From assembly GCA_965207075.1 (NCBI GenBank), contig CBDBLO010000002.1, positions 2,214 to 66,213 on the forward strand: 64,000 nt of DNA, read 5' to 3'. Shown in pieces: positions 28,977 through 48,939 of this stretch. This stretch comes from Nitrosopumilus sp. GTDB taxonomy: Archaea > Thermoproteota > Nitrososphaeria > Nitrososphaerales > Nitrosopumilaceae. Below the pieces are notes generated by a model. The model was not told where the DNA came from, ran no database searches, and saw nothing but the letters and a program-made list of their open reading frames with translations. The translations under genes were made by a program, and so were the position numbers. Within the stretch, counting starts at the first letter, position 1, and each line of letters opens with the position of its first letter.

Positions 28977-30632
28977 TCACGGGCCGCGCCCGTTTGCGCC
29001 GTCCCCCGTGCCGCCGCACAGGGCCCCGATCGCGTCCCGGATCTCCCTCGCGTGCCTGTCGCTCATGCAGACGATCCTCGCGACCTCGCCGATCAGCGCG
29101 TCTGGGTCCGGGGAGCCCCCCGCGCGCAGCATCTGCTGCAGCCTGTTACGCACCGCGCGCACCTCGGCCTGGTCGTCCCTGCCCGGGCCGGCGGCGTCCC
29201 TGGCACCGCCGCGACCCGCCCCGGACGCGGCGGCGCCCCGGTGCCCGCTGAATATGTTGAGCATGTGGGCCGCCTTTGCGTACTCCGCCCGCACGGTCTC
29301 CCCGTATAAAATGGACTGCTTCTCGTACACGTCCTTTGGCTTGTGCCCTATCACGTGGTCGGCCACGTCCATCCGGCAGCCGCACTCTATGAGCGTGGAC
29401 TTTAGGAGGGAGCGCATCTCGTGCGAGTCCACGCGCCACGAGTTCTTGCCGGTCTTCTGCTGCACGCCGGAGCCCCAGGCCAGCCTCGAGAACGCGTTGG
29501 TCACCCACCCGCTCCCGATCGGCTTTAGCGCGCTCGACAGGAACAGCGGGAGATCCCCGCTCATGCCGCCCCCCGTCCTTGAGCGGCGCCAGTCCAGGTA
29601 CTCCTGCACGGCGGCCACCGCGTCCCGCTCCAAAAACCCCAGGTGCGTGTACCCCGTCTTCAGGCGCGTCAGAGTGACGGGCACGGGGCACCTGTCCAGG
29701 TCCCATCCGTGGTGGTCCTCCGTCCCGAAGTGGCGCGCCATCTGACCCCAGGCCTCAAAGTTGAACCGGTCTATCAGCGTGGAGACGTCAAGCCCCCTGT
29801 GCAGCTTGCAGAGCATCGCGGCCTTTTCCGTTATGGTGGGGCGCGCGGCAGTCAGCATCCTGCGCACGTCCCCGAGCGTGAGCGTCTGGATCGTCTCCGT
29901 GTTGTCGTACGTGGCGGCCGGGTCGAATGAGACCTCGATCCCCTGCTCGTTGCGCTTGAAATATGACAGTATGGCGTTGCGGGTCGAGGCCATCGTCGAC
30001 GCCCTCTTTCCCCGGTGCGCCGGGTCCATCAGGTACCTCTTCACTATGACGGCAACGTCCGAGCGTACTGCCAGCGGCCTGGCAAGCAGCTCTATCAGAT
30101 CCTCGACGCTCTCAAAGGCGGCCTGGCTCACGCGGGTATGGGAGCCGCCTGCCAGCATGCGCCCCCCGGAGCACCTCTTCCTGCCGCCTCCCCGGTGCCT
30201 TGCCACGTGGACTTCGTGCGTGCCGCTTGTGAGCCACCTGTTGAAGCGCCACAGGTGCCTCGCGTACGACGAGCGCGTGGTGTTGGCCGAGCCGCCGACG
30301 TTGGTCCTTGTACTGCCGCGGAGCTGGCCCAGCCAGAACGAGACGGTCCTCAGGCTCAGGAACTCGTCGGGTATGTGCCCGTCCTCCACCCTGTCAAGGG
30401 CGCCGGTTTTTGCGACGGCGGCAAGCCCGCGGCTCACAACCGAGATGGCGGTGGAGTCGTTTGCCGGCAGGCGGGGCCTGTGCTCGCTGTAGACCTCCCT
30501 GCAGGTGAGCCTCCTGCCGGGCTCGAAAGACCCGAATATGCCCACCAGCCTCTTTGGGACCTTGGCTCGCTCATAGTCGGCGGCAGTCGGCCTGCGTATG
30601 ACCGCGTACGTGATCTCGGGCCTGCCGTTCAC
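28977..30632 (-). CDS. Tyrosine recombinase/integrase with N- and C-terminal extensions
   Basis: Catalytic set R (LHRGLD), K (RLKTG), HxxR (SHEMR), H (VIGH), Y (DVYEK). Confidence 0.85.
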   Translation of the reverse strand: MNGRPEITYAVIRRPTAADYERAKVPKRLVGIFGSFEPGRRLTCREVYSEHRPRLPANDSTAISVVSRGLAAVAKTGALDRVEDGHIPDEFLSLRTVSFWLGQLRGSTRTNVGGSANTTRSSYARHLWRFNRWLTSGTHEVHVARHRGGGRKRCSGGRMLAGGSHTRVSQAAFESVEDLIELLARPLAVRSDVAVIVKRYLMDPAHRGKRASTMASTRNAILSYFKRNEQGIEVSFDPAATYDNTETIQTLTLGDVRRMLTAARPTITEKAAMLCKLHRGLDVSTLIDRFNFEAWGQMARHFGTEDHHGWDLDRCPVPVTLTRLKTGYTHLGFLERDAVAAVQEYLDWRRSRTGGGMSGDLPLFLSSALKPIGSGWVTNAFSRLAWGSGVQQKTGKNSWRVDSHEMRSLLKSTLIECGCRMDVADHVIGHKPKDVYEKQSILYGETVRAEYAKAAHMLNIFSGHRGAAASGAGRGGARDAAGPGRDDQAEVRAVRNRLQQMLRAGGSPDPDALIGEVARIVCMSDRHAREIRDAIGALCGGTGDGANGRGP

Positions 30633-30685
30633 ACACCACGCGTTGCGCCAACCTTACTTAATGCGCCGTGTCAAGAAACACTCGC

Positions 30686-30847
30686 AACTGGATAAATTTT
30701 TTTTGACAGGCTCGCCGCCGCACGGGTTCGCCCGCCGTGCGTGGGGCACCCGCGGCTCGGGGTCCGCGCCCGGCTGCTGGGGGTGGGGGGAGCGGGTGGA
30801 GGCGCGAACCCATACAGGCCATCATCATCATCAGCACCAACAACGCG
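30686..30847 (+). promoter_or_regulatory. Disrupted promoter/leader of S-layer copy A
   Basis: CTCGC-AACTGGA-TAAATTTTTTTTGACAGGC vs CACGC-TTATAAG-TAAATTTTTTTGACAGGC upstream of copy B; 108-bp insertion between ACAGGC repeats; ATG replaced by GCG (30845). Confidence 0.75.
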
Positions 30848-30887
30848 CAAAAGCGAGACCTACAGAAAATATACTAGCATAACGCTA

Positions 30888-33800
30888 ATGGCAATCATGG
30901 TCGCCGGGGGGCTGACCTTTGCCGTACCGGGCGCGGACCCCGTGTTTGCAGAAGTGAGCACGTCGAACCCGAACCTGTACGTATCGGCAGAGGGACAGGA
31001 CCCCGACAACATGTTTGCCGAAGGAAACATAATCGAAGTAATAATTAGAGACGATTCAATAGGAGATACAGACGAAGGAGAGGCGGAGCCCGAAGTTACC
31101 GTAAACGGAGCGGACCTCCGGATGCTGCAGACTGCCAACGGCTACTGGACGGCGTACTTTGCCGAGGTGGACGCGCTGGCGGGCGCAGCTGAAAGCCTCC
31201 CCTACGGTGTATACTGTAGCGAGACTGCCGCGTCAGCGGTGACAGGTCTTCCGCTCAGCGACGGCAACGGCGTATACCTGCCGCCCGGCTCCAACTGTAA
31301 TGATTCCAACACCAGCGCCAACGGCCACCCCCTGATAAGGGAGCCGCGCGACCTGACCAACTATGACGGCAACTCGCTGGGACAGCTTGGACTGTCCAAC
31401 GCGAACCTTTGGCCCTTCATCCAGGTATACGACTTTACGTCACTGACTGACGTCGACATCGTCTACAACAAGGGCGGCGATCGCCAGACCGTCACCCTGA
31501 CGTTTGACGACCCGTCAGAATCCCACTCGCTAGACCGCACCAAGTACCCGCAGGGCGCTCACGTGCACATCGAGCTGATGGACTATGCACTGAACATAGA
31601 CCCGACAGACGAGGACACGTGGGTGTTCGACACCCAGAACGGTGGGGCGTACTACAACGTGTTTGACGAGGACGGAAACCCGAGCTCTGAGATCAACGCA
31701 GTTGGCTCGGAGGCCGGCATCGACGAGACCGTAAGCATAAACCGCGGCGCACAGGGCAACGACGTGATCGACTGCCAGGTGACAAAGGACTTTGGAATAC
31801 AGGAGGAAGATAACGCGAGCCGCGACTACCTCGTGGTCGATGACTATGGCGCCTGCGTGCCCAACGTGGGCCTGGTCGCCGGCGCGGACGACGTGTTCAC
31901 GCCCGGCAACTTTGCCATCGGATTCGTGGAGGACGGCTCCAACAACAACGTATTCATCAACTGGGCCGAGGACCAGAGGTCCAACATCGTCGTAAAGAAA
32001 GACGCGCTGAGGGGCAACAGCTTCGAGGTGGACTACAGCTCTCCGGACGCAAAGTCCGGGGTCATAGGACACTTCTTTGCCGAGCTCGCGCTCGACGTGC
32101 CTGACGACACCTGGAACTCTGGCGAACGCATACCCATAACGCTTACCGACGAGGACGCCAACGTCAACCCACTCGCAGAGGACAACCTCGAGGTGGCCAA
32201 CCCGTACAGCCTGCTGGTGCCATCCATCAGGATCGGCTCGCCGGTCACGCTGGCGTCGGCCACAGGCGACGTGGTATGGTTTGACTTGGCAGATCCGCTT
32301 CCGCCTGACACCACAGATCCGGTGATCAGACTCACCGGACCCTCGGAGATCAGGCTGAACGTGGGCGACACCTATACCGAGCGGGGCGCCACGTGTACTG
32401 ACGCGAGGGACGGCAACCTAACGGTCTCCCAGACGTCGGCTGCACCCAACACTAACGTGGCAGGCACGTACACGCTGATGTACACTTGTACCGACACTGC
32501 AGGAAACTCGGCTTCCGTTACCAGAGTGGTAACCGTCGACGATCCTGACAGACCCGATACTGACATGCCCGTGATTACCGTGAACCCGGGCACCGACACC
32601 ATAACTGCCGGTGACACCTGGACCGACGCGGGAGCCAGCTGTACGGATGCCAGGGACGGGCCACTGACCGTGACCACGACTGGCACCGTCACCAACACTG
32701 CACCGGGCACCTACACCATAACGTACGCCTGTGAGGACAATGCAGGAAACTCCGCAACCGAGACTAGGACCGTAACCGTAAATGCCAGACAGGCTACGAT
32801 ATCACTGACCGTCGACCCAGGCCAATGGGATGACGGGGTTATCGAGCTGGACATAAGCGGAACCACGGTCAACGTCGCCGACGGCATCGTTACACTGACG
32901 TCAGATACCATTCCCAACTTTGGCGAGTATGACGTTACAGTAACCAGCAACGTGATATCAGGGATGATACCCTTTGCCAACGTTACGGTGTCCGGCACCC
33001 ACACGTTTACGGCAACGACTTCTGACGGCTCAATTAGTGGCAGCGACACGGCAAACATACCGCCGGCTATGTCACTCACCAACGTGGTTCACATAGACTC
33101 ATGGATCGATGCTGACGATGTTCCTACCGCGGATCGTGACTACATTACGCTACGGGTCGCAGGTACGGAATCCGTGTCTGGCCCTGTTACCTTGTCAGTA
33201 CTTGATGAGGACGGCGAGCTAACTGACAAGCTTGGCTTACCTGTACAGTTTGGCGACAACGGCCAAGTGCGTATCAACATCACGGATACATCCATACAAG
33301 GACCAACCCAGTTTGTCCTGACAACCACCTACGCTGGCGTAACTTCAACCTCAAACAGCTGGACTGCGAACATGCCCGTACTGCTTACCCTAGACGACAT
33401 CATCGTAAACGAATGGGACAATGGTTCACTCATACTGAACATCACAGGTACCAAGCAAGCAATCGTACCGAATGGCGGAGGCAGCGACAATGTCGATGTC
33501 CGCGTATCTGGTACTACTACAATCGTAGGTAGCGTTGAGGGTTACAGTGACGGTGTGGTAAACGGCACAGTAACACTTGCCGACACCGACTGGGCATTAT
33601 CCGGCACTACCGTACAGTTCGAACTGGTGGAAGACACAAATACTCCGACGATTTTCACGTCAGATCCCGTAGCCAGGGACATACCCTCGATCCTGACCAA
33701 CCTGCAAGTTACCACAACCGGTAGCAATGCGGGCCAGTGGAACGACGGGAACTTTGAGGTAAGGGTGACAGGATCCAGCGACGGCATTCCCGAGGATACC

Positions 33801-36800
33801 CTGATTAACTTGGAAGCGGACAACGGAGAGGCATGGATCCCAGTTGTAACCGGTGCTAATACACCAGGTTTACTACAGATACTGGCTGGCGGCGACATAC
33901 GCGCCACGGTATCCATAGATGACATCAACCTGTCCGGAAACACCGTGTTCAGACTGGTGACTGCTACCAATGGCGCTACATCCAACAACTCGACTGCCAT
34001 AAACATCCCATCCGTATTTACCTCTCTGCCGGTCATCACGGCAGATTCTGACGGCTGGGGTGGCGACAATAACATCGACATAAACGCACTGGGAACCTCC
34101 GGTCTGGCCGATGCCACGACCCTGCAACTGCGGGTGTCGACAGGCGGCGCATTTACGGACGTAGGGGCCACCAGTACCATTGCCGCCGATGCAAATGGCG
34201 CTATCAACCACACTGGATCCTTGACCGACCTATCACTGTCCGGAACATCAGCCACGTTCATACTGCAAGCCACTACCAGTGGTATTATTGTAATGTCAGA
34301 CAACGTGACCGTAAGCATACCTGCGGCACTGACCCTGGCAGACGTGAGCTTTGGTAATGCAGGATGGACGGGTGAAGAAGGCTCTCAAGTACTCAACCTG
34401 TTTGTAACAGGCAGCACCACGCTGACGGTTGGTAACGGGGCATCACTAGAATACTACAACGAAGCCACTGAAACTTGGGTTCCTGTTCCGGTCGACGGCG
34501 ATGGCCCCGCTCTCGTGGGTACAATACCTGACGACGGCGCCATAGCAGATGCGCAGGTAATCCTAGATGATCCAGAGCTGGCGGGCGACACAGTCCAGCT
34601 CAGACTGGTCTCAACTGATGATACAACCACGGCAGCATCGGCACCCATAACAAGGACCATTCCGGCACTGCCGCCATCAAGCAGCAGCGTCGACATGGCA
34701 CCCACGCCGATATCCTTCTCCGCACAGAACGGATTCCCGCCCATAACTAGGGCAGTAATCAACGACATCAGCGAGATACCGGCCGTGCACAACGTGCAGG
34801 CCTCATCACCGGTGGCAATATACACCTGGTCAGATGACGACAAGACCGTAGAGGCGTTCAGCGACAGGCTCAGACTATCCGAGCCTTCCGAGAGGAACAC
34901 CATAACGGGCAACTCGAAGATCGTCATATACGGATGGGAGCCACCCACGTTTGCCGACGGCGTCACAACGCTGTTCAACTGGAACTTTGGTTCCATACTG
35001 AGCGACAGCATCGCGGCCGGCACGATCATAACCGAGATCAGGCTTGCAAACGCAGCCCACACCGAAAGTGTGCTACTGGGCGACGGTGAATCCGGCCTGG
35101 TGGACATCACTGCCATGAAGGACGACATCGAGGCCCTCGGAGATACCGTAGACCTGGTCATCATGATGGACAACACCAACATCGACCACGTGTGCGGCGA
35201 CATTACGTTGGTTGCTGACTTCTTCACGTTCGGACAGAACGACGATGACGGTAGGGTGAACAACGCCATATACCGCATCGAGGTCGAGGAGGCCAGCAGC
35301 AACTCTGCCGACTTTGAGGGCACCGTGGAGTACACCATGCTCAACCAGCTGAACATCGACGATCCGGCCACGTACACGGGCCTGAGGACCATCTCAGACC
35401 AAGTGTCGATCATAGTCCACGAGGACTTTACCGACGAGGACTCCGTGAGGGTCAACTATCTCGACTTGGGCGCCGACGGCGTATCAACCCAGATAGCGAT
35501 CCAGCAGGCGGCCCCGACGCACAGCGCCGTGGTCTCCTTTGACGCGGAGAGCTACAAGGTTGCCGACACCGTTACGATAACGCTGGAGGATGCCGACCTC
35601 AACGTCCAGAACGACGTGATAGACATCTACACGTTCTCATCTGAACTCACGGACTACATCGGAGACGACAAGGCCTACATCCTCGACGTCACATTTGACG
35701 ACGAGCTATGGACCTCCGGAGAATGTGAGGGAGCCGACGGATTTGCATCCACCGGCTTCACGCTGCAGGAGACTGCGGCAGGCTCCGGCGTCTTTACGGG
35801 CGACTTCCAGATACCCGAATACTACTGCCAGTCGAGCACCACCACCATGGTCTCCGTAACCGGCGTGGACATTGAAGTCAACTATCAGGACTTCCGTGAC
35901 GCGTCCGGCGAGGAGATCGAGGTCGGAGCGGGAGCGGCGGTTCGTGCCAACACTGGTACGGTATCGCTTGACCGCACCGTATACCCGGTGCCGTTCGCGG
36001 CAGACGTGTTCGAGCACACCACAGGCACGCTCGGCCAGCACGATCTGACGGTCCACGTCACCATAGACGATCCGGACTTTGACATATCGGCTGCCGGCGA
36101 GGACGTGATATCCAACGCCACCGAGTACCTGACCGTACAGGTCATACGCGGCTCGGCATCCCAGACGATCGACCTTGACGACGCGCAGATCCTCGAGACC
36201 GCGCCCGACAGCGGCGCATTCGAGCTTGACCTGCCACTCGCGTACGACGCCGGTCCGGACGGATCGATACTGCAAGGAGACATCCTGCAGGTCGAGTACC
36301 GCGACCCGACTGACGCGTCAGGCGAGGAGAACACCGTCACAGACTCTGCTACCTTCGACCTGCGCAACGGCGTGCTCCAGTCCGACAAGTCCGTCTACAT
36401 CATCGGCTCAGACATGATCCTGACGCTGATAGAGCCGGACCTTGACCTGGAGAACGACGGCGCCGAGTCCTACACGCTCGACCTGATCGAGTGGGACTCT
36501 GACGCAGCGACGCTCGGCATGGACAACCCAGTGTTCGATCCAGAGCCATCCGAGCTCCGTGAGACTGGAGACTCCACCGGAATATTCCAGGTGATAGTCG
36601 AGATTCCCGCGGAGATCGACGGCGACCGCCTCGAGAGGGGTGAGGAGATCGAGCTCGAGTACGTTGACTGGGGTCCGTCAGGCGCCGACTATGTCGGCGA
36701 CGAGAGTGAGGACGTCGGACTGACGGTATTCACCTCCAACTTTGGCGCGACCATCGAGCTGGACCAGAAGGTGTACACGTGGACCGACAAGGTCTACATC

Positions 36801-37874
36801 ACCATCGTGGCGCCAGACCACAACTTCGACTCCGCACTTGTCGACGAGATAGGCGACTCCAACCTCGACCCGATACAGGTATCCACGCGCAGTGCCGACA
36901 TCGACAACTACAAGCTTGTCGAGACCGGTCCTGACACGGGAATCTTCACGGGTGAGGTGATCCTTATCGGATTCGACCACAACGCGGACGGCGACACCGA
37001 GACTGGTACCGAGGCAGGTTATGACAACCCGCAGCGTGACACCAGCCCAGACGGCAGCGGACCCACCAACGGCTACCTCCAGACTGACGATGACGACGGC
37101 ATCACCGTCTCATTCGAGTACTCTGAGGACGAGACCGTAGTGGGCTCTGCTCTCATCAGGTGGAACATAGGCGAAGTGCAGTGGCTCGAGTCATCGTACC
37201 CGGCATCCGGCACAGGAGTGGTCAGGGTCATCGACCCAGACATGAACTGGAACCCGGAGGCAGTGAACAACTTTGTGGTTGACGTGTGGTCAGACGCCGA
37301 CAACGGCGGAATCGACCTCACCGTAACCGAGACCAACGAGGCGACCGGAATATTCGAAGGCACGGTGTTCTTCACCATAACCGACGAGTCGTCCGGGCAC
37401 CGCCTCCGCGTCGCAGAGGGCAACACTGTAACGGCCGAGTATGAGGACAACACGCTACCAGACCCGTACACGACAGCAGACGAGCTCGACATAACGGCAA
37501 CCACGCTGATCGGCACCATCGTGCCTCCGCTGGAGAGGGCGCCCGCAACCAACCTTAGGATTGTGGATGCCTTCGGCAACAGCCTAGACACGGTGTCTGC
37601 AGACCAGCAGGTGCAGATCGTGGCAGACCTGGCCAACGGCCAGGACCGCTCCCAGGCCTTTGCCTATCTGGTACAGGTCCAGGACGCAAACGGTGTCACG
37701 GTCGCGCTCTCCTGGATATCCGGAACGCTGGAGGCAGGACAGTCACTGAGTCCGTCAACATCATGGATTCCATCCGAGGCGGGAACCTACACGGCAACCG
37801 CGTTCGTATGGGAGTCAGTTGACAACCCGACTGCCCTATCGCCGCCGGTCACAACCGACATCACCGTAAGCTAG
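30888..37874 (+). CDS. Large thaumarchaeal-type S-layer protein, copy A (probably a silent cassette)
   Basis: Reading frame open to 37874 (ORF track starts at GTG 30741); N-terminus YRKYTSITLMAIMVAGGLTFA, acidic beta-rich body, DUF5011-like Ig repeats, C-terminal ...SWIP..AGTYTATAFVWES; 30888 is the first ATG inside the homologous region. Confidence 0.85.
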   Translation: MAIMVAGGLTFAVPGADPVFAEVSTSNPNLYVSAEGQDPDNMFAEGNIIEVIIRDDSIGDTDEGEAEPEVTVNGADLRMLQTANGYWTAYFAEVDALAGAAESLPYGVYCSETAASAVTGLPLSDGNGVYLPPGSNCNDSNTSANGHPLIREPRDLTNYDGNSLGQLGLSNANLWPFIQVYDFTSLTDVDIVYNKGGDRQTVTLTFDDPSESHSLDRTKYPQGAHVHIELMDYALNIDPTDEDTWVFDTQNGGAYYNVFDEDGNPSSEINAVGSEAGIDETVSINRGAQGNDVIDCQVTKDFGIQEEDNASRDYLVVDDYGACVPNVGLVAGADDVFTPGNFAIGFVEDGSNNNVFINWAEDQRSNIVVKKDALRGNSFEVDYSSPDAKSGVIGHFFAELALDVPDDTWNSGERIPITLTDEDANVNPLAEDNLEVANPYSLLVPSIRIGSPVTLASATGDVVWFDLADPLPPDTTDPVIRLTGPSEIRLNVGDTYTERGATCTDARDGNLTVSQTSAAPNTNVAGTYTLMYTCTDTAGNSASVTRVVTVDDPDRPDTDMPVITVNPGTDTITAGDTWTDAGASCTDARDGPLTVTTTGTVTNTAPGTYTITYACEDNAGNSATETRTVTVNARQATISLTVDPGQWDDGVIELDISGTTVNVADGIVTLTSDTIPNFGEYDVTVTSNVISGMIPFANVTVSGTHTFTATTSDGSISGSDTANIPPAMSLTNVVHIDSWIDADDVPTADRDYITLRVAGTESVSGPVTLSVLDEDGELTDKLGLPVQFGDNGQVRINITDTSIQGPTQFVLTTTYAGVTSTSNSWTANMPVLLTLDDIIVNEWDNGSLILNITGTKQAIVPNGGGSDNVDVRVSGTTTIVGSVEGYSDGVVNGTVTLADTDWALSGTTVQFELVEDTNTPTIFTSDPVARDIPSILTNLQVTTTGSNAGQWNDGNFEVRVTGSSDGIPEDTLINLEADNGEAWIPVVTGANTPGLLQILAGGDIRATVSIDDINLSGNTVFRLVTATNGATSNNSTAINIPSVFTSLPVITADSDGWGGDNNIDINALGTSGLADATTLQLRVSTGGAFTDVGATSTIAADANGAINHTGSLTDLSLSGTSATFILQATTSGIIVMSDNVTVSIPAALTLADVSFGNAGWTGEEGSQVLNLFVTGSTTLTVGNGASLEYYNEATETWVPVPVDGDGPALVGTIPDDGAIADAQVILDDPELAGDTVQLRLVSTDDTTTAASAPITRTIPALPPSSSSVDMAPTPISFSAQNGFPPITRAVINDISEIPAVHNVQASSPVAIYTWSDDDKTVEAFSDRLRLSEPSERNTITGNSKIVIYGWEPPTFADGVTTLFNWNFGSILSDSIAAGTIITEIRLANAAHTESVLLGDGESGLVDITAMKDDIEALGDTVDLVIMMDNTNIDHVCGDITLVADFFTFGQNDDDGRVNNAIYRIEVEEASSNSADFEGTVEYTMLNQLNIDDPATYTGLRTISDQVSIIVHEDFTDEDSVRVNYLDLGADGVSTQIAIQQAAPTHSAVVSFDAESYKVADTVTITLEDADLNVQNDVIDIYTFSSELTDYIGDDKAYILDVTFDDELWTSGECEGADGFASTGFTLQETAAGSGVFTGDFQIPEYYCQSSTTTMVSVTGVDIEVNYQDFRDASGEEIEVGAGAAVRANTGTVSLDRTVYPVPFAADVFEHTTGTLGQHDLTVHVTIDDPDFDISAAGEDVISNATEYLTVQVIRGSASQTIDLDDAQILETAPDSGAFELDLPLAYDAGPDGSILQGDILQVEYRDPTDASGEENTVTDSATFDLRNGVLQSDKSVYIIGSDMILTLIEPDLDLENDGAESYTLDLIEWDSDAATLGMDNPVFDPEPSELRETGDSTGIFQVIVEIPAEIDGDRLERGEEIELEYVDWGPSGADYVGDESEDVGLTVFTSNFGATIELDQKVYTWTDKVYITIVAPDHNFDSALVDEIGDSNLDPIQVSTRSADIDNYKLVETGPDTGIFTGEVILIGFDHNADGDTETGTEAGYDNPQRDTSPDGSGPTNGYLQTDDDDGITVSFEYSEDETVVGSALIRWNIGEVQWLESSYPASGTGVVRVIDPDMNWNPEAVNNFVVDVWSDADNGGIDLTVTETNEATGIFEGTVFFTITDESSGHRLRVAEGNTVTAEYEDNTLPDPYTTADELDITATTLIGTIVPPLERAPATNLRIVDAFGNSLDTVSADQQVQIVADLANGQDRSQAFAYLVQVQDANGVTVALSWISGTLEAGQSLSPSTSWIPSEAGTYTATAFVWESVDNPTALSPPVTTDITVS

Positions 37875-37909
37875 TATATACACAAAAACACACAGAAAAA
37901 AATTTCCCC

Positions 37910-37928
37910 TTTTTTCTTTTTTTATTTT
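37910..37928 (+). terminator. Archaeal oligo-T terminator of S-layer copy A
   Basis: TTTTTTCTTTTTTTATTTT just downstream of the stop. Confidence 0.75.
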
Positions 37929-38259
37929 GGACTAACAGCGGATGCTGTGACCGTCAGGTTGTAGCATGCGCAAATCCGCGCTATGCTGTATCCAGAGACT
38001 TGGTCGACGAGCAGCAAAAATGGTAATCAAGTACGTGACGTCCCTTGCTGCATGTAGGACGATAACGAAATATGGAATAATTTCCGACCAGCTAACGTGA
38101 AAGATCTACGAGTGCGTCCGACCATGTTAAAGCGGGTTCATCCACCGCGCCGTTCTGCGACGAGTTTTCTTTGCGCGTTTTATTTTCTGCATGTGGGCAA
38201 CCGACGGTTTTTGGGCTGGGCTTGGACATAACCTCTGAAGTCATGGAAGGATTGCACTA

Positions 38260-39364
38260 GAGTGACGATCATTGAAAATTTCGCTTCACACGCAGCGGTA
38301 CAGAAATTTGTAGATGTCAAGCCTGATTGGGCACGTCCTGAAATATTCGGACACAGCATGCGTCAGATCCTCCCGCGTCTCGTAGTGTTCTGAGGTGACA
38401 AGCCTGTACTTTGCATCCTTCCATACGGACTCGACTGCGCTGAGCTTCGGTGTGGCGGTGGGCAGGTACAGGATCTCCACCCCGTCGTGTTCCTTCAGGT
38501 ACTTTTTCACCTCCCTGTGCTTGTGCTGGCTTGCGTTGTCCGCTACGAGCAGGACCCTGCCCCACTTGCGGCGCACCTTCCTGAGATACCGTACGAACGT
38601 CGGGCCGTCGAACTTCTCATACTGCCGCATCAGTCTCGTTCCATCCTCTGCAAGCGTGCCGAACACGACGGTCCGATCCCTCCTGCCGTGCCGGCTGACA
38701 GTCACGGAATCCCCGACGCGCGACCACAGCTTCCTTCCGTTCGTCCCCGTTCTGAGAAATATGGACTCGTCCTGCACCGCGATCGTCAATCCGCGCCTTT
38801 TTGCACCCGATATCGTGCCTGCGGCGTCGGCCTGCCACTGCCTTACCGCGTCGGCGTCGGCAGCCGAGGCGTACAGGGTGGTCGACCTCTTGGACGAGAA
38901 CCCGAGGCGTCGCAGGATCCTGCGCACGCTGCACAGGCTGTACCGGATGTACAGCCTCTCCCGTATCCAGTTCCGCAGCTTTCTCGGGGTGAGCGTGTTC
39001 CTGCCTGCAAGCCTGTCGGCCACCCTCCTGATCTGGCCGTACCTTGCGCGTGAAGCCCTGCCCCTCCCGGGAGCGTCCCGGAGGCCACCGATGCCGTCCT
39101 CGTTGAACCGGGCAACCCACAGTTGCACCGTTCGCTGGTCCACGTCTGCAAAATCAGACGCGGTCCTTGTCGAGTGGCCCTTGAGCACACCCAGGACAGC
39201 CATCATCCTGTTGCGGATCCTGACGTCCCTCTCTGCACGCATGGCCTCCTTCAGCTCCCAGATCTTCTTGCTGTTCTCGATCATGGATGGGGCGGCGATC
39301 CGGCGATCAATAAGCTTTTCTGCGGTTGTCCATCATGAGGCGAAATTTTCAATGAGCGTCACTC
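38260..39364 (-). mobile_element. IS630/Tc1-mariner family IS
   Basis: TIRs GAGTGACGATCATTGAAAATTTCGC / GAGTGACGCTCATTGAAAATTTCGC (1 mismatch); TA on both sides (38258-59, 39365-66) in a CTAG context. Confidence 0.93.
38286..39284 (-). CDS. IS630 transposase (intact, single frame)
   Basis: Two HTH regions; DDE triad QDES / ADNAS / AVESVW. Confidence 0.93.
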   Translation of the reverse strand: MIENSKKIWELKEAMRAERDVRIRNRMMAVLGVLKGHSTRTASDFADVDQRTVQLWVARFNEDGIGGLRDAPGRGRASRARYGQIRRVADRLAGRNTLTPRKLRNWIRERLYIRYSLCSVRRILRRLGFSSKRSTTLYASAADADAVRQWQADAAGTISGAKRRGLTIAVQDESIFLRTGTNGRKLWSRVGDSVTVSRHGRRDRTVVFGTLAEDGTRLMRQYEKFDGPTFVRYLRKVRRKWGRVLLVADNASQHKHREVKKYLKEHDGVEILYLPTATPKLSAVESVWKDAKYRLVTSEHYETREDLTHAVSEYFRTCPIRLDIYKFLYRCV

Positions 39365-39609
39365 TAGTGGACGCTCTGACAGCTTGAATGCGCCGCGGTT
39401 AAATGATGCGTCCATCTACCCATGAGATGATATGGGCAGCCACCCCCGTATTCAACACCGCCGTTATCCGCAATCCGTCGCCGGCCGGATACAACGGCGG
39501 CCGCCATAGCAACATTATGGCCAAGTTTTACGCCCAAACGCCGGCAAATCAGAATAGAGGTGCCATGCTTGTGCAATCATGTGACGGTCACAGCATCCGC
39601 TGTTAGTCC

Positions 39610-39628
39610 AAAATAAAAAAAGAAAAAA
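39610..39628 (-). terminator. Oligo-T terminator of S-layer copy B
   Basis: Reverse complement of the copy A terminator. Confidence 0.75.
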
Positions 39629-39663
39629 GGGGAAATTTTTTTCTGTGTGTTTTTGTGTATATA

Positions 39664-42600
39664 CTAGCTTACGGTGATGTCGGTTGTGACCGGCGGCGAT
39701 AGGGCAGTCGGGTTGTCAACTGACTCCCATACGAACGCGGTTGCCGTGTAGGTTCCCGCCTCGGATGGAATCCATGATGTTGACGGACTCAGTGACTGTC
39801 CTGCCTCCAGCGTTCCGGATATCCAGGAGAGCGCGACCGTGACACCGTTTGCGTCCTGGACCTGTACCAGATAGGCAAAGGCCTGGGAGCGGTCCTGGCC
39901 GTTGGCCAGGTCTGCCACGATCTGCACCTGCTGGTCTGCAGACACCGTGTCTAGGCTGTTGCCGAAGGCATCCACAATCCTAAGGTTGGTTGCGGGCGCC
40001 CTCTCCAGCGGAGGCACGATGGTGCCGATCAGCGTGGTTGCCGTTATGTCGAGCTCGTCTGCTGTCGTGTACGGGTCTGGTAGCGTGTTGTCCTCATACT
40101 CGGCCGTTACAGTGTTGCCCTCTGCGACGCGGAGGCGGTGCCCGGACGACTCGTCGGTTATGGTGAAGAACACCGTGCCTTCGAATATTCCGGTCGCCTC
40201 GTTGGTCTCGGTTACGGTGAGGTCGATTCCGCCGTTGTCGGCGTCTGACCACACGTCAACCACAAAGTTGTTCACTGCCTCCGGGTTCCAGTTCATGTCT
40301 GGGTCGATGACCCTGACCACTCCTGTGCCGGATGCCGGGTACGATGACTCGAGCCACTGCACTTCGCCTATGTTCCACCTGATGAGAGCAGAGCCCACTA
40401 CGGTCTCGTCCTCAGAGTACTCGAATGAGACGGTGATGCCGTCGTCATCGTCAGTCTGGAGGTAGCCGTTGGTGGGTCCGCTGCCGTCTGGGCTGGTGTC
40501 ACGCTGCGGGTTGTCATAACCTGCCTCGGTACCAGTCTCGGTGTCGCCGTCCGCGTTGTGGTCGAATCCGATAAGGATCACCTCACCCGTGAAGATTCCC
40601 GTGTCAGGACCGGTCTCGACAAGCTTGTAGTTGTCGATGTCGGCACTGCGCGTGGATACCTGTATCGGGTCGAGGTTGGAGTCGCCTATCTCGTCGACAA
40701 GTGCGGAGTCGAAGTTGTGGTCTGGCGCCACGATGGTGATGTAGACCTTGTCGGTCCACGTGTACACCTTCTGGTCCAGCTCGATGGTCGCGCCAAAGTT
40801 GGAGGTGAATACCGTCAGTCCGACGTCCTCACTCTCGTCGCCGACATAGTCGGCGCCTGACGGACCCCAGTCAACGTACTCGAGCTCGATCTCCTCACCC
40901 CTCTCGAGGCGGTCGCCGTCGATCTCCGCGGGAATCTCGACTATCACCTGGAATATTCCGGTGGAGTCTCCAGTCTCACGGAGCTCGGATGGCTCTGGAT
41001 CGAACACTGGGTTGTCCATGCCGAGCGTCGCTGCGTCAGAGTCCCACTCGATCAGGTCGAGCGTGTAGGACTCGGCGCCGTCGTTCTCCAGGTCAAGGTC
41101 CGGCTCTATCAGCGTCAGGATCATGTCTGAGCCGATGATGTAGACGGACTTGTCGGACTGGAGCACGCCGTTGCGCAGGTCGAAGGTAGCAGAGTCTGTG
41201 ACGGTGTTCTCCTCGCCTGACGCGTCAGTCGGGTCGCGGTACTCGACCTGCAGGATGTCTCCTTGCAGTATCGATCCGTCCGGACCGGCGTCGTACGCGA
41301 GTGGCAGGTCAAGCTCGAATGCGCCGCTGTCGGGCGCGGTCTCGAGGATCTGCGCGTCGTCAAGGTCGATCGTCTGGGATGCCGAGCCGCGTATGACCTG
41401 TACGGTCAGGTACTCGGTGGCGTTGGATATCACGTCCTCGCCGGCAGCCGATATGTCAAAGTCCGGATCGTCTATGGTGACGTGGACCGTCAGATCGTGC
41501 TGGCCGAGCGTGCCTGTGGTGTGCTCGAACACGTCTGCCGCGAACGGCACCGGGTATACGGTGCGGTCAAGCGATACCGTACCAGTGTTGGCACGAACCG
41601 CCGCTCCCGCTCCGACCTCGATCTCCTCGCCGGACGCGTCACGGAAGTCCTGATAGTTGACTTCAATGTCCACGCCGGTTACGGAGACCATGGTGGTGGT
41701 GCTCGACTGGCAGTAGTATTCGGGTATCTGGAAGTCGCCCGTAAAGACGCCGGAGCCTGCCGCAGTCTCCTGCAGCGTGAAGCCGGTGGATGCAAATCCG
41801 TCGGCTCCCTCACATTCTCCGGAGGTCCATAGCTCGTCGTCAAATGTGACGTCGAGGATGTAGGCCTTGTCGTCTCCGATGTAGTCCGTGAGTTCAGATG
41901 AGAACGTGTAGATGTCTATCACGTCGTTCTGGACGTTGAGGTCGGCATCCTCCAGCGTTATCGTAACGGTGTCGGCAACCTTGTAGCTCTCCGCGTCAAA
42001 GGAGACCACGGCGCTGTGCGTCGGGGCCGCCTGCTGGATCGCTATCTGGGTTGATACGCCGTCGGCGCCCAAGTCGAGATAGTTGACCCTCACGGAGTCC
42101 TCGTCGGTAAAGTCCTCGTGGACTATGATCGACACTTGGTCTGAGATGGTCCTCAGGCCCGTGTACGTGGCCGGATCGTCGATGTTCAGCTGGTTGAGCA
42201 TGGTGTACTCCACGGTGCCCTCAAAGTCGGCAGAGTTGCTGCTGGCCTCCTCGACCTCGATGCGGTATATGGCGTTGTTCACCCTACCGTCATCGTCGTT
42301 CTGTCCGAACGTGAAGAAGTCAGCAACCAACGTAATGTCGCCGCACACGTGGTCGATGTTGGTGTTGTCCATCATGATGACCAGGTCTACGGTATCTCCG
42401 AGGGCCTCGATGTCGTCCTTCATGGCAGTGATGTCCACCAGGCCGGATTCACCGTCGCCCAGTAGCACACTTTCGGTGTGGGCTGCGTTTGCAAGCCTGA
42501 TCTCGGTTATGATCGTGCCGGCCGCGATGCTGTCGCTCAGTATGGAACCAAAGTTCCAGTTGAACAGCGTTGTGACGCCGTCGGCAAACGTGGGTGGCTC

Positions 42601-45600
42601 CCATCCGTATATGACGATCTTCGAGTTGCCCGTTATGGTGTTCCTCTCGGAAGGCTCGGATAGTCTGAGCCTGTCGCTGAACGCCTCTACGGTCTTGTCG
42701 TCATCTGACCAGGTGTATATTGCCACCGGTGATGAGGCCTGCACGTTGTGCACGGCCGGTATCTCGCTGATGTCGTTGATTACTGCCCTGGTTATGGGCG
42801 GGAATCCGTTCTGTGCGGAGAAGGATATCGGCGTCGGTACCATGTCGACGCTGTTGCCAGATGGCAGTGCCGGAACGACCCTTGATAGGGAGTTTGATAC
42901 TGCTATGGCGGGGTCACTACCTGTTTGCAGTCTGAACTGGACTGTGTCGCCCGCCAGTTCTGTATCATCTAGGGTTACCACCGCGTCAGATATGTCACCC
43001 GCTGTGCCGCTTGCAGCAGGGGTAAGAGGGATCCATGTTTCGCCGTTGGTGGATACCGCTAGTGTTGCGCCTGTACTCAATTTGCTGTTGCCTGTTACAA
43101 ACAGGTTGAGGCTATGATCAGTATCAGTTGTGTTAGTCCATCCTGCATTGCCGAAACTCACGTCTGCCAGGGTCAGTGCCGCAGGTATGCTTACGGTCCT
43201 GTTGCCTGACTCTGCCACATTGCCGCCGACAGTGACTGCCAGTTTGAACGTGGTCGTTATTCCGGACATTGCGATGTCGTTCAGGGTTGCATTGTAGTCG
43301 AAATTGCCGCCTGTAAGGGCGGTGTCAAAGGCATTACCTACGTCAACAAACTCATTAGCTTTCACCGCCTGCAATTGCAGAGACGTACCCGAAGCACCCA
43401 AGCCAGAGGTTCCCTTTACGTTTATCGTAAGGGCGCCAGCATCCGTCCAGTCACCAATCGGCGTGACGGTCGGCAGGGATGTGAGTATGTGCGGGATGCG
43501 CACGGCTGTCGAGTTGTTTGACGCGGCATCGTTGGCATATTCATTGGATTGGTCAGTGCCAGTCACCAGCCTAAACACGGTATCTCCGGACAGAGATATG
43601 TCCGTTATGGATACCGTGGCGCGTATGTCGCCGCCAGACAGTATCCGCAGTCCCGTAGTTGTGCCATCTACAACCGTCGTCCATTGATCGTCGATGTCTG
43701 CCTGCAGGTCAATCTCGGTATCCTCTGCAATGCCGTCGCTGAGTCCTGTCACCCTTACCTCAAAGTTCCCGTCGTTCCACTGGCCCGCGTTGCTGCCGGT
43801 TGTGACAACTTGCAGGTTGGTCAGTATCGGGGGTATGTCTCTGGATAGGGGATCTGATGTGAAAGTCGTCGCCGCACCTCCGGAGTTTTCCACCAGTACA
43901 AACTGTACGGTAGTGCCGGATAATGCGAGGTCGTCGGCGCCAAGTGTTACCGTGCCGTTTACCACGCCGTCATCGAAACCAGAAACCGAAACCGTACCTA
44001 CGGCTGCTCCAGTATCAACTAGATGGACAGTGAATGCGCCACCGCCGTCGGTATTCGGTACGATTGCTTGCTTGCTACCTGTTATGTTCAGTATGAGCGA
44101 ACCCGTGGTTGCACCTGCGATCCATTCATTTACGATGATGTCGTCTAGGGTAAGCAGTACGGGCATGGGCGCAGTCCAACTGTTTGAAGCTACAGGTACG
44201 CCAGCGTAGGTGGTTGTCAGGACAAACTGGGTTGGGCCTTGTATGGCAGTATTCGTTATGTTGATACGCGCTTGGTTGTTGACAAACTGTACAGGTTGGT
44301 TAAGCGTGGCTGTATCAAGCTCGCCGTCCTCATCAAGTACTGACAAGGCAACGGCGCCAGACACGGATTCCGTACCTGCGACCCGTAGCGTAATGTAATC
44401 ATCACCAGTGTCAGGATTAATCCATTCATCTACGGGAACCACGTTGGTAAGGGATATCGCCGGCGGTATGTTTGCCGTGTCGCTGTTACTAATTGAGCCG
44501 TCAGAAGTCGTTGCCGTAAACGTGTGGGTGCCGGACACCGTAACGTTGGCAAAGGGTATCATCCCTGATATCACGTTGCTGGTTACTGCAACGTCATACT
44601 CGCCAAAGTTGGGAATGGTGTCTGACGTCAGTGTAACGGTGCCGTCGGCGACGTTGACCGTGGTTCCGCTTATGTCCAGCTCGATAACTCCGTCATCCCA
44701 TTGGCCTGGGTCGACGGTCAGTGATATCGTAGCCTGTCTGGCATTTACGGTTACGGTCCTAGTCTCGGTTGCGGAGTTTCCTGCATTGTCCTCACAGGCG
44801 TACGTTATGGTGTAGGTGCCCGGTGCAGTGTTGGTGACGGTGCCAGTCGTGGTCACGGTCAGTGGCCCGTCCCTGGCATCCGTACAGCTGGCTCCCGCGT
44901 CGGTCCAGGTGTCACCGGCAGTTATGGTGTCGGTGCCCGGGTTCACGGTAATCACGGGCATGTCAGTATCGGGTCTGTCAGGATCGTCGACGGTTACCAC
45001 TCTGGTAACGGAAGCCGAGTTTCCTGCAGTGTCGGTACAAGTGTACATCAGCGTGTACGTGCCTGCCACGTTAGTGTTGGGTGCAGCCGACGTCTGGGAG
45101 ACCGTTAGGTTGCCGTCCCTCGCGTCAGTACACGTGGCGCCCCGCTCGGTATAGGTGTCGCCCACGTTCAGCCTGATCTCCGAGGGTCCGGTGAGTCTGA
45201 TCACCGGATCTGTGGTGTCAGGCGGAAGCGGATCTGCCAAGTCAAACCATACCACGTCGCCTGTGGCCGACGCCAGCGTGACCGGCGAGCCGATCCTGAT
45301 GGATGGCACCAGCAGGCTGTACGGGTTGGCCACCTCGAGGTTGTCCTCTGCGAGTGGGTTGACGTTGGCGTCCTCGTCGGTAAGCGTTATGGGTATGCGT
45401 TCGCCAGAGTTCCAGGTGTCGTCAGGCACGTCGAGCGCGAGCTCGGCAAAGAAGTGTCCTATGACCCCGGACTTTGCGTCCGGAGAGCTGTAGTCCACCT
45501 CGAAGCTGTTGCCCCTCAGCGCGTCTTTCTTTACGACGATGTTGGACCTCTGGTCCTCGGCCCAGTTGATGAATACGTTGTTGTTGGAGCCGTCCTCCAC

Positions 45601-46680
45601 GAATCCGATGGCAAAGTTGCCGGGCGTGAACACGTCGTCCGCGCCGGCGACCAGGCCCACGTTGGGCACGCAGGCGCCATAGTCATCGACCACGAGGTAG
45701 TCGCGGCTCGCGTTATCTTCCTCCTGTATTCCAAAGTCCTTTGTCACCTGGCAGTCGATCACGTCGTTGCCCTGTGCGCCGCGGTTTATGCTTACGGTCT
45801 CGTCGATGCCGGCCTCCGAGCCAACTGCGTTGATCTCAGAGCTCGGGTTTCCGTCCTCGTCAAACACGTTGTAGTACGCCCCACCGTTCTGGGTGTCGAA
45901 CACCCACGTGTCCTCGTCTGTCGGGTCTATGTTCAGTGCATAGTCCATCAGCTCGATGTGCACGTGAGCGCCCTGCGGGTACTTGGTGCGGTCTAGCGAG
46001 TGGGATTCTGACGGGTCGTCAAACGTCAGGGTGACGGTCTGGCGATCGCCGCCCTTGTTGTAGACGATGTCGACGTCAGTCAGTGACGTAAAGTCGTATA
46101 CCTGGATGAAGGGCCAAAGGTTCGCGTTGGACAGTCCAAGCTGTCCCAGCGAGTTGCCGTCATAGTTGGTCAGGTCGCGCGGCTCCCTTATCAGGGGGTG
46201 GCCGTTGGCGCTGGTGTTGGAATCATTACAGTTGGAGCCGGGCGGCAGGTATACGCCGTTGCCGTCGCTGAGCGGAAGACCTGTCACCGCTGACGCGGCA
46301 GTCTCGCTACAGTATACACCGTAGGGGAGGCTTTCAGCTGCGCCCGCCAGCGCGTCCACCTCGGCAAAGTACGCCGTCCAGTAGCCGTTGGCAGTCTGCA
46401 GCATCCGGAGGTCCGCTCCGTTTACGGTAACTTCGGGCTCTGCTTCGCCCTCGTCCGTGTCTCCTATTGAGTCATCTCTTATGATTACTTCGATTATGTT
46501 TCCTTCGGCAAACATGTTGTCGGGGTCCTGTCCCTCTGCCGATACGTACAGGTTCGGGTTCGACGTGCTCACTTCTGCAAACACGGGGTCCGCGCCCGGT
46601 ACGGCAAAGGTCAGCCCCCCGGCGACCATGATTGCCATTAGCGTTATGCTAGTATATTTTCTGTAGATTTCGTTTTGCAT
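39664..46680 (-). CDS. Large thaumarchaeal-type S-layer protein, copy B (probably the expressed copy)
   Basis: 2338 aa; complete signal peptide MQNEIYRKYTS...; near-identical to copy A outside the central segment. Confidence 0.92.
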   Translation of the reverse strand: MQNEIYRKYTSITLMAIMVAGGLTFAVPGADPVFAEVSTSNPNLYVSAEGQDPDNMFAEGNIIEVIIRDDSIGDTDEGEAEPEVTVNGADLRMLQTANGYWTAYFAEVDALAGAAESLPYGVYCSETAASAVTGLPLSDGNGVYLPPGSNCNDSNTSANGHPLIREPRDLTNYDGNSLGQLGLSNANLWPFIQVYDFTSLTDVDIVYNKGGDRQTVTLTFDDPSESHSLDRTKYPQGAHVHIELMDYALNIDPTDEDTWVFDTQNGGAYYNVFDEDGNPSSEINAVGSEAGIDETVSINRGAQGNDVIDCQVTKDFGIQEEDNASRDYLVVDDYGACVPNVGLVAGADDVFTPGNFAIGFVEDGSNNNVFINWAEDQRSNIVVKKDALRGNSFEVDYSSPDAKSGVIGHFFAELALDVPDDTWNSGERIPITLTDEDANVNPLAEDNLEVANPYSLLVPSIRIGSPVTLASATGDVVWFDLADPLPPDTTDPVIRLTGPSEIRLNVGDTYTERGATCTDARDGNLTVSQTSAAPNTNVAGTYTLMYTCTDTAGNSASVTRVVTVDDPDRPDTDMPVITVNPGTDTITAGDTWTDAGASCTDARDGPLTVTTTGTVTNTAPGTYTITYACEDNAGNSATETRTVTVNARQATISLTVDPGQWDDGVIELDISGTTVNVADGTVTLTSDTIPNFGEYDVAVTSNVISGMIPFANVTVSGTHTFTATTSDGSISNSDTANIPPAISLTNVVPVDEWINPDTGDDYITLRVAGTESVSGAVALSVLDEDGELDTATLNQPVQFVNNQARINITNTAIQGPTQFVLTTTYAGVPVASNSWTAPMPVLLTLDDIIVNEWIAGATTGSLILNITGSKQAIVPNTDGGGAFTVHLVDTGAAVGTVSVSGFDDGVVNGTVTLGADDLALSGTTVQFVLVENSGGAATTFTSDPLSRDIPPILTNLQVVTTGSNAGQWNDGNFEVRVTGLSDGIAEDTEIDLQADIDDQWTTVVDGTTTGLRILSGGDIRATVSITDISLSGDTVFRLVTGTDQSNEYANDAASNNSTAVRIPHILTSLPTVTPIGDWTDAGALTINVKGTSGLGASGTSLQLQAVKANEFVDVGNAFDTALTGGNFDYNATLNDIAMSGITTTFKLAVTVGGNVAESGNRTVSIPAALTLADVSFGNAGWTNTTDTDHSLNLFVTGNSKLSTGATLAVSTNGETWIPLTPAASGTAGDISDAVVTLDDTELAGDTVQFRLQTGSDPAIAVSNSLSRVVPALPSGNSVDMVPTPISFSAQNGFPPITRAVINDISEIPAVHNVQASSPVAIYTWSDDDKTVEAFSDRLRLSEPSERNTITGNSKIVIYGWEPPTFADGVTTLFNWNFGSILSDSIAAGTIITEIRLANAAHTESVLLGDGESGLVDITAMKDDIEALGDTVDLVIMMDNTNIDHVCGDITLVADFFTFGQNDDDGRVNNAIYRIEVEEASSNSADFEGTVEYTMLNQLNIDDPATYTGLRTISDQVSIIVHEDFTDEDSVRVNYLDLGADGVSTQIAIQQAAPTHSAVVSFDAESYKVADTVTITLEDADLNVQNDVIDIYTFSSELTDYIGDDKAYILDVTFDDELWTSGECEGADGFASTGFTLQETAAGSGVFTGDFQIPEYYCQSSTTTMVSVTGVDIEVNYQDFRDASGEEIEVGAGAAVRANTGTVSLDRTVYPVPFAADVFEHTTGTLGQHDLTVHVTIDDPDFDISAAGEDVISNATEYLTVQVIRGSASQTIDLDDAQILETAPDSGAFELDLPLAYDAGPDGSILQGDILQVEYRDPTDASGEENTVTDSATFDLRNGVLQSDKSVYIIGSDMILTLIEPDLDLENDGAESYTLDLIEWDSDAATLGMDNPVFDPEPSELRETGDSTGIFQVIVEIPAEIDGDRLERGEEIELEYVDWGPSGADYVGDESEDVGLTVFTSNFGATIELDQKVYTWTDKVYITIVAPDHNFDSALVDEIGDSNLDPIQVSTRSADIDNYKLVETGPDTGIFTGEVILIGFDHNADGDTETGTEAGYDNPQRDTSPDGSGPTNGYLQTDDDDGITVSFEYSEDETVVGSALIRWNIGEVQWLESSYPASGTGVVRVIDPDMNWNPEAVNNFVVDVWSDADNGGIDLTVTETNEATGIFEGTVFFTITDESSGHRLRVAEGNTVTAEYEDNTLPDPYTTADELDITATTLIGTIVPPLERAPATNLRIVDAFGNSLDTVSADQQVQIVADLANGQDRSQAFAYLVQVQDANGVTVALSWISGTLEAGQSLSPSTSWIPSEAGTYTATAFVWESVDNPTALSPPVTTDITVS

Positions 46681-46709
46681 GTTATTGATGGCCTGTCAAA
46701 AAAATTTAC

Positions 46710-46715
46710 TTATAA
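46710..46715 (-). promoter_or_regulatory. TATA box of S-layer copy B
   Basis: TTATAA 30 bp upstream of ATG 46680. Confidence 0.75.
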
Positions 46716-47073
46716 GCGTGATGGACGATTGGTTCATGAGATAGGCACGGATTCACGGCTGCAGGTATGATGCTGCACGGTTGGTTTTATGTTTGTACCA
46801 ATATGGCGGCCGTCGGAGGGTCTGGGGGCGGTGGGACGGCCATATGCTGCCGTCCGGCGGCCGGCCGGACATCCATCAGCCACTCCAAGCATCCGCCCCG
46901 CGGACAGCCGACCTGCCACCGCGGGAAGAGCCGGGCACGTCACACTTGGACTTGCAGGTCTTGGCGGCTCCGCCCTTTGCGGGGGGAGGGGTGGACGTAC
47001 ATGCCGCGCCACGGCCCATGCATCTGCCTACCGCAAAAGGGGGGCACGGCGGGCGCCCGCAAAAAGCGTCGGA

Positions 47074-48814: not shown

Positions 48815-48939
48815 GTCATCTGCACCGTGTGCACGGCCGGTATCTCCGGGATGTCGTTGGTTACCGTTTTGGTTGTGGGCGGGAACCCGTCACGCGTGGA
48901 GAGGGATGCCGGCGTCGGTGTCATGTCGGCGCTGCGGCC
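48815..48939 (-). pseudogene. Degenerate start of the S-layer constant C-terminal region after a TAG
   Basis: GRSADMTPTPASLSTRDGFPPTTKTVTNDIPEIPAVHTVQ vs GNSVDMVPTPISFSAQNGFPPITRAVINDISEIPAVHNVQ in copy B. Confidence 0.8.

Follow-up and report, generated by a model that had tools for sequence, protein, structure and literature searches.

Bacteria that live with hosts or are exposed to phages classically vary their surface proteins in a programmed way. At the sap locus of Campylobacter fetus, a single promoter sits on an invertible segment between divergent cassettes, of which there are up to 8–9; the cassettes are promoterless full-length homologues with a conserved 5′ region, and recombination between inverted 5′ regions, which depends largely on the general machinery, alters which homologue is expressed. 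For Lactobacillus acidophilus, the outline given in a review of the slpA/slpB pair describes an inversion that puts the silent surface-layer (S-layer) gene behind a single promoter (Boot et al. 1996, reviewed in PMC3666127). Tyrosine recombinases carry out gene-altering inversions at short, defined sites in Mycoplasma (vsa/HvsR and vpma/Xer1; PMC5634654) and in Streptococcus pneumoniae (hsdS ivr; PMC4948785). Inversion switches in archaeal chromosomes are said to be ‘only minimally investigated’ (PMC10028968), and the main systematic scan for gene-altering inversions left out archaea (PMC9881135). Nitrosopumilus maritimus carries two S-layer paralogues, Nmar_1547 and Nmar_1201, which are 91% identical, differ in an internal segment and include one that is dominant on cells (PMC11153153), and two reports on Haloquadratum walsbyi describe a cell-wall island in which highly divergent envelope alleles are exchanged among close strains by homologous recombination in conserved flanks (PMC4535781, PMC4033161). 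Here we describe an inverted pair of S-layer genes, A and B, in a 64,000-nt stretch of archaeal DNA, referred to as the window (Nitrosopumilus sp., assembly GCA_965207075.1, contig CBDBLO010000002.1, positions 2,214–66,213, forward strand). We lean towards reading A as an archived cassette that would be exchanged with the expression site held by B, either by inversion or by gene conversion.

Copies A and B are genes of about 7 kb that converge tail to tail, each with an intact open reading frame (ORF). Copy A, which is start-less, occupies 30888–37874 on the forward strand (2328 aa counted from Met15 of the signal peptide, in a frame open from 30741), and copy B, the expression-site copy, occupies 39664–46680 on the reverse strand (2338 aa). 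A repeat finder returned two inverted-repeat pairs, one at the 5′ ends (30850–33116/44410–46676; 2267 nt, 99% identity) and one at the 3′ ends (34673–37988/39550–42865; 3316 nt, 99%); given their size and identity, these repeats are not due to chance. In a base-by-base global alignment, A and B are 100% identical across A 31086–32836 and A 34749–37956. We delimit a 5′ constant arm of A at 30860–33116 on the forward strand, paired with B 44410–46666, and a 3′ constant arm at 34673–37956, also on the forward strand, paired with 39582–42865 and containing the stop codon (37872–37874) and a T-rich, terminator-like tract. Identity ends at 37956/39582, which is 82 nt beyond the stop codon and past that tract. 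Between the arms lies a central segment of 1.55 kb that is only 55–87% identical in 100-nt windows: A_var (33117–34672, forward strand) encodes 519 aa of tandem Ig-like domains, and B_var (42866–44409, reverse strand) encodes 515 aa. An earlier, sequence-only reading of this DNA had described two converging genes of about 7 kb with shared 5′ and 3′ parts and a divergent centre, the shared 3′ sequence running to 37956/39582; its coordinates proved accurate in both the repeat search and the alignment, down to exactly those 3′ ends.

That reading also took both genes to encode S-layer proteins, and the identification holds. In a phmmer search, B matched the N. maritimus S-layer protein NmSLP (PDB 8c8k) with E = 0 and 1383 bits, in four stretches covering B residues 1–472 and 1430–2338, i.e. 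the signal peptide, the N-terminal domains and the C-terminal ~900 residues. Both A and B are true homologues of NmSLP. The signal peptide of B is complete (MQNEIYRKYTSITLMAIMVAGG...) and follows the pattern M(N/Q)NEIxRKxTSxTLMxIMVAGG, the first 14 codons of which are missing in A. B has an isoelectric point of 4.05 and 16% D+E, and an acidic isoelectric point is expected for this S-layer family (PMC6790972). Residues ~478–1318 of B are extra with respect to NmSLP: two Pfam Bact_surface_Ig-like domains come first, and about five repeats of 100 aa each follow. The AlphaFold2 (AF2) model of the central 690 aa of B has an all-beta fold and is best matched in the PDB by chains of Ig/Fn3 domains. 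The variable cassette holds 8 of the 14 N-glycosylation sequons of B and 9 of the 15 N-X-S/T sequons of A. The glycans of NmSLP sit on its outermost, N-proximal domains, with the N-terminus facing outward (PMC11153153). As the sequons cluster in the cassette and the NmSLP glycans lie on the outermost domains, we infer that the variable cassette is surface-exposed.

The two copies differ sharply at their 5′ ends. As a bacterial sigma-70 model is inapplicable to archaea, we read the local TATA pattern from the regions upstream of 33 window ORFs. A TTTAWAG-like box lies at about −32 to −25 upstream of other window genes, and both B and REC, a tyrosine recombinase gene next to A, fit this pattern. 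The 5′ end of copy B reads cacgcTTATAAGTaaatttttttgacaggccatcaataacATG, with the TATA box TTATAAGT (cTTATAAGt, 46715–46708) and an ATG at 46680. This B-type promoter region (46681–46860, reverse strand) is conserved in L002/L012, L004B and L011, which belong to the related loci that we compared with the window (L001–L014; L002, L010 and L012 all lie in the closed genome OZ242041.1, L013 and L014 in OZ243037.1, L003 in ERZ25084387 ctg35874l, L004 in ERZ25069412 and L005 in ERZ26693581). The equivalent region of copy A, the REC–A intergenic region and A-type leader (30633–30887, forward strand), carries the REC promoter ATTAAGTAAG on the reverse strand, and the only promoter remnant of A itself is TAAATTTTTTTTGACAGGC (30693–30711), the 3′ part of an AT-rich box. 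This relic is followed by a G+C-rich insert of 102 nt (30712–30813) between ACAGGC repeats, a 6-bp duplication. We considered whether the insert is a repeated miniature inverted-repeat transposable element and rejected this, as no other copy was present in the window or the compared loci. Where B has its ATG, A has GCG (30845–30847), and one extra base breaks the old frame. A product begun at the first in-frame ATG of A (30888), which corresponds to Met15 of the signal peptide, would lack the conserved charged n-region. The claim of the sequence-only reading that B alone has an intact TATA box and ATG therefore agrees with the sequence, with the caveat of the AT-rich remnant in A, and A is presumably silent.

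In B, an 18-nt element, TAAATTTTTTTGACAGGC, falls in the interval from the TATA box to the ATG. Every start-less copy adjacent to REC has it conserved upstream (in the window at 30693–30711), and it is absent from L004A and L003x, two start-less copies away from REC; the leader that follows it is not conserved. One possibility is that the element drives a sterile transcript, another that it acts as an accessory site. We also considered site-specific inversion at the shared TAAATTTTTTTGACAGGC elements as a productive switch and judged it unlikely, because it would place the ATG-less leader of A behind the TATA box and leave B promoterless.

Copies of the B type, which have a DUF4344 gene upstream and both the canonical promoter and the ATG, are present in the window, OZ242041.1 (L002/L012), L004 and L011. 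Start-less copies lie directly beside REC in the window, L001, L005, L006, L008, L009 and OZ242041.1 (L010), with a conserved REC promoter region. Two further start-less copies, L004A and L003x, bring the total to nine, 7/9 of which are REC-adjacent. The canonical ATG is missing in all nine, and no conserved alternative start was found among them. The A-type leaders are about 60–190 nt long and not conserved in sequence; in L006A, L003x and the start-less copy of OZ242041.1 (OZ_A), an in-frame stop lies 12 codons upstream with no start codon. Tail-to-tail pairs are present in the window, L004 and L005, and the pair in OZ242041.1 converges across a 16-kb housekeeping block. A 6-kb TPR/SNF2/SWIM insert lies between REC and the REC-side copy of L004. 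At L004 14843/14844, a head-to-head junction connects the two copies, each truncated at the point of the gene that corresponds to window A ~36620, and their arms are 92% alike; the junction reflects either a genuine palindromic deletion or an error of assembly. L003x (L003 9380–17029) has its ATG changed to ATA, a frameshift near codon 150 and no REC within 10 kb; it adjoins rve, IS110 and IS66 transposase genes and shares its contig with the REC-linked L001. In a neighbouring lineage, OZ243037.1 (Cenarchaeum sp.) carries two S-layer paralogues on the same strand, ~28 kb apart and 78–90% identical at the nucleotide level, which is a different multi-copy arrangement.

The three full-length start-less copies that we tested retain the marks of coding sequence. 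These copies, from the window, OZ242041.1 and L001, contain zero stops in 2328–2469 codons, while their centres are saturated at synonymous sites (synonymous divergence, dS > 1) and the ratio of nonsynonymous to synonymous divergence (dN/dS) in their arms is 0.01–0.3. Between OZ_A and the expression-site copy of the same genome (OZ_B), dS in the C-terminal part is 0.07–0.28 and dN/dS is 0–0.07. Open frames and coding constraint together indicate that these three copies are not pseudogenes, and the view of A as a simple pseudogene was rejected on these results. In the variable cassette, dN/dS is 0.6–0.85 in every comparison, the expressed copy included.

Several features point to recombination between the copies. 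The arms of adjacent copies are 100% identical in the window and 98–99% in L005, whereas window and L005 arms differ from each other by 5–10%; in OZ242041, with 16 kb between the copies, arm identity is 87–94%. The arms of adjacent copies evolve in concert, independently in two lineages. Within the otherwise identical 5′ arm of A, a 43-nt patch (31043–31085) carries 10 synonymous differences, a footprint of mosaic conversion. The centre of the expression-site gene of L011 is 79–87% identical to the REC-linked OZ_A and 46–60% to OZ_B; its promoter region, by contrast, matches that of the OZ242041.1 expression-site copy. B_var and a third window cassette, C_var (described below), are nearest to the REC-side cassette of L004. 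Cassette types do not track site position among genomes. The bodies of REC-linked genes also turn over between close relatives: in L006 versus OZ242041.1 and in L009 versus L005, the flanks are 95–96% identical and the bodies are unrelated after nt ~350 and ~1450, respectively.

REC (28977–30632, reverse strand) encodes a 551-aa tyrosine recombinase and is divergent from A; the assignment is based on Pfam family, catalytic residues and fold. The Pfam matches of the window protein are weak, and PF00589 is matched by 18 of the 19 family members. Residues R279, K325, H404, R407, H430 and Y436/Y443 are invariant in the family, and in a fold search the AF2 model of REC matched XerA, lambda Int, Tn1549 Int, XerH, IntI and Cre; a profile search against PDB sequences gave no match. 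REC thus combines the R-K-H-R-H-Y catalytic set with the matching fold, as expected of the recombinases in tyrosine-recombinase inversion systems. Eight genomes carry REC intact, and its dN/dS of 0.16–0.44 indicates purifying selection; in seven genomes it is adjacent to and divergent from a start-less copy, across a conserved intergenic promoter. Strict linkage, the conserved intergenic region and purifying selection suggest a role for REC, and we give about even odds to its contributing to the exchange. The first ~60 nt of the shared 5′ arm are invariant in 13 copies, synonymous sites included. The REC–A module is not always in the same place. When its position in OZ242041.1 (L010/L012) was compared with window 8379–30632, it was on the opposite side of the 18-kb cytochrome b ... 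UbiA–AsnC block relative to the window, L001, L005, L008 and L009; since the orientation of the block is unchanged, this move is a translocation and not an inversion. Between L005 and L010, dS is 0.23 for REC and 0.03 for cytB. The more distant relatives of REC are found in variable regions that contain no S-layer genes.

The exchange that we favour would work as follows. B would occupy the ancestral expression site: the DUF4344 gene lies upstream of it, its near-leaderless ATG follows the TATA box by ~30 nt, and its signal peptide is complete. A would be a full-length, inverted archive copy that lost its TATA core, ATG and charged signal-peptide start long ago and travels with REC. Recombination would run through the long constant arms of the two copies. 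If a reciprocal crossover took place in the 5′ arm, 33117–44409 would be inverted and A_var brought behind the B promoter; a conversion tract across the centre could swap the same cassette without inversion. Since the 3′ arms are identical, both routes would swap only the Ig-array, so that about five outward-facing, glycosylated Ig-like domains would change while the lattice-forming N- and C-terminal parts would stay constant. As the window repeats are perfect over 1.7 and 3.2 kb, general homologous recombination would be sufficient. Non-reciprocal gene conversion and inversion would leave the same expected footprints. We infer that exchange occurs within populations, and switching within a population is a prediction of this scheme. 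Whether REC and the start-less cassette together form a programmed DNA-inversion system that varies the outer glycosylated Ig-array across this high-GC, Cenarchaeum-like clade of ammonia-oxidising archaea is more doubtful, and we put this forward only tentatively. The switch proposed by the sequence-only reading is supported in part: its S-layer identity, geometry and promoter/ATG asymmetry hold, with A ‘silent’ as judged from its sequence, and the idea is strengthened by the start-less copies without ATG (mostly beside REC), the coding constraint on the three tested, the concerted arms and the cassettes that cross sites.

A number of points weigh against this archive-and-exchange reading. The REC-side copy of L004 is frameshifted, and no recombinase core site with dyad symmetry was found in the invariant 5′ block. 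Next to AsnC–UbiA lies a REC homologue of 57% identity that has no S-layer gene within 10 kb, so the linkage of REC may be inherited synteny. The crossing of cassettes between sites could stem from a foreign allele replacing one site. Copy A, moreover, retains the in-frame Met15/Met18 together with TAAATTTTTTTGACAGGC, so weak independent expression of A is possible. Carried further, A could be an independently expressed second paralogue, with an unrecognised promoter and a start at Met15 or Met18, which co-assembles with B or serves under different conditions and whose arms are homogenised by gene conversion, with no programmed switching. This fits the intactness of A under purifying selection, the AT-rich TAAATTTTTTTGACAGGC element conserved upstream of the REC-adjacent A-type copies and the choice of gene callers, which place the start of several close homologues at Met15/Met18. 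There are also precedents, since N. maritimus has both a major and a minor paralogue at 91% identity (PMC11153153) and six S-layer-like proteins are expressed in the sponge-associated Ca. N. ianthellae (PMC6790972). Yet all A-type copies lack the TTTAWAG-type TATA box seen elsewhere in the window, all lack the ATG and the charged (R/K) n-region of the signal peptide, and their unconserved leaders of variable length showed no Shine-Dalgarno-like motif on inspection. We regard independent expression as rather unlikely, though a serious competitor.

Less probable still is that the arrangement plays no part in variation. REC and A would then be the remains or the cargo of a module that is mobile or horizontally exchanged, or the product of simple inverted duplication, and A would stay open only through repeated repair by conversion from the selected copy B. 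The different place of the module in OZ242041, the discordance in divergence between REC and the flanking cytB, the occurrence of distant REC relatives away from S-layer genes, the decayed L004 copy and the IS630 elements or IS630-end relics that flank the module would all be explained. Such repair does not account for A_var, which has not been converted from B and is still open, nor for the start-less copies of L001, OZ242041 and the window, which are free of stops although synonymous sites in their centres are saturated; the OZ242041 arms have escaped homogenisation, yet their dN/dS is 0.3 or less, and REC itself is under purifying selection in eight genomes. An assembly artefact, in which the single S-layer gene of two co-existing strains was misjoined as an inverted pair, is very improbable. 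Long perfect repeats are hard to assemble, the short-read contigs of relatives break within the S-layer gene, as expected for a repeat, and the head-to-head junction in L004 is suspicious. However, the 5′ flanks of A and B differ, each being specific and conserved in other genomes, and a unique, IS630-bearing spacer separates the copies. The same tail-to-tail pair is present in two independent assemblies, L004 and L005, which makes an artefact unlikely, and the closed genome OZ242041 holds the 16-kb-spaced pair.

The spacer between A and B contains an IS630-family insertion sequence (38255–39369, reverse strand) with terminal inverted repeats at 38255–38288 and 39336–39369 and a transposase gene at 38286–39284. 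It is absent from the equivalent spacer of L005, indicating a late insertion, and L004 and OZ242041 also lack it. IS630 was considered as the cause of the inverted duplication and rejected, since the insertion sequence at the junction is not common to all carriers, L005 being without it. In L006 (7780–7839), L007 (2017–2076) and L010 (7963–8017), the sequence immediately past the 3′ end of REC contains relics of ~60 nt that resemble the ends of IS630, and the REC–A module may have relocated with help from IS630.

Upstream of B, a gene for a putative metallopeptidase with fn3 and DUF4344 domains (47074–48411, reverse strand) is the conserved neighbour of every B-type copy. Beside it lies a 1206-aa fusion gene (48940–52560, reverse strand; 48820–52560 with the relic described below) that joins a DUF4344 N-terminal half to an S-layer Ig-array. 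The N-terminal half consists of fn3 and the DUF4344 peptidase and is 75% identical in amino acids to the neighbour at 47074–48411. The Ig-array contains C_var (48947–50469), a third variable cassette that is 81% identical to B_var, and a 127-nt relic of the S-layer 3′ arm (48820–48946) follows the stop codon. The fusion gene, which is absent from L004 and OZ242041.1, could encode a secreted protease on the same stalk or act as a third donor cassette in direct orientation to B. Three TnpB genes lie around the locus (17459–18853, 27324–28676 and 56861–58201), as do genes for a Fic-domain protein (21555–22439), an AAA_14/DUF4143 ATPase (25270–26784) and a MORC-like HATPase (58544–60484); mobile elements and genes of defence type abound in this neighbourhood.

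The window has a G+C content of 56–65%, and the closest public genomes are metagenome-assembled genomes labelled Nitrosopumilus sp. and Cenarchaeum sp.; a host-associated lifestyle of the organism is plausible. When the exact A and B proteins were looked up in public assemblies, no record came back, and hence no second assembly of the window species. A scan of JGI metagenomes with A_var gave zero relatives, and one with the N-terminus of B gave only relatives of 32–39% identity from outside the clade. Alternative A/B junctions were not found in database searches of public assemblies and JGI metagenomes. Long-read metagenomes of several carriers appear to exist, judging from contig names such as ctg160132_47x_c. 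In ammonia-oxidising archaea, the S-layer makes up the whole cell wall, concentrates ammonium and is the likely surface of contact with viruses and hosts (PMC11153153). If the proposed exchange is true, the outer Ig-array would be swapped while the lattice is kept, which bears on symbiont–host recognition and virus evasion in globally important nitrifiers; if REC and the start-less cassette form a programmed inversion system, Archaea would have their first described system for programmed surface variation. Our literature searches found no description of an archaeal S-layer switch.

The locus resembles the bacterial systems in part. With slpA/slpB, it shares two oppositely oriented S-layer genes with a common 5′ region; a one-promoter state is predicted here from the loss of the TATA core and ATG in A. 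It differs in that the organism is an archaeon, the protein family is unrelated, the genes are convergent and the central Ig-array alone, rather than the whole gene, is different; a tyrosine recombinase is linked to the locus, and the switch is here a prediction from sequence. As in sap, there is an apparently promoterless full-length S-layer homologue with a conserved inverted 5′ region. The sap parallel drawn in the sequence-only reading does not extend to the promoter, which at sap lies on the invertible segment and in B lies outside the repeats; the genes are also tail to tail, with two cassettes and one fused relic. In common with vsa, vpma and ivr, the locus has a promoter and 5′ end at one expression site, inverted copies without a 5′ end and an adjacent tyrosine recombinase. 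Its repeats, however, are kilobases long where those systems use short defined sites, and REC belongs to a divergent archaeal/marine family of ~550 aa. The Nmar_1547/Nmar_1201 pair belongs to the same protein family and likewise consists of highly similar copies with a differing internal segment; we know of no recombinase link for the minor N. maritimus paralogue. Finally, the strain-level turnover of REC-linked gene bodies between conserved flanks is reminiscent of the H. walsbyi island, where exchange takes place between strains, while here two cassettes are kept in one genome as inverted repeats.

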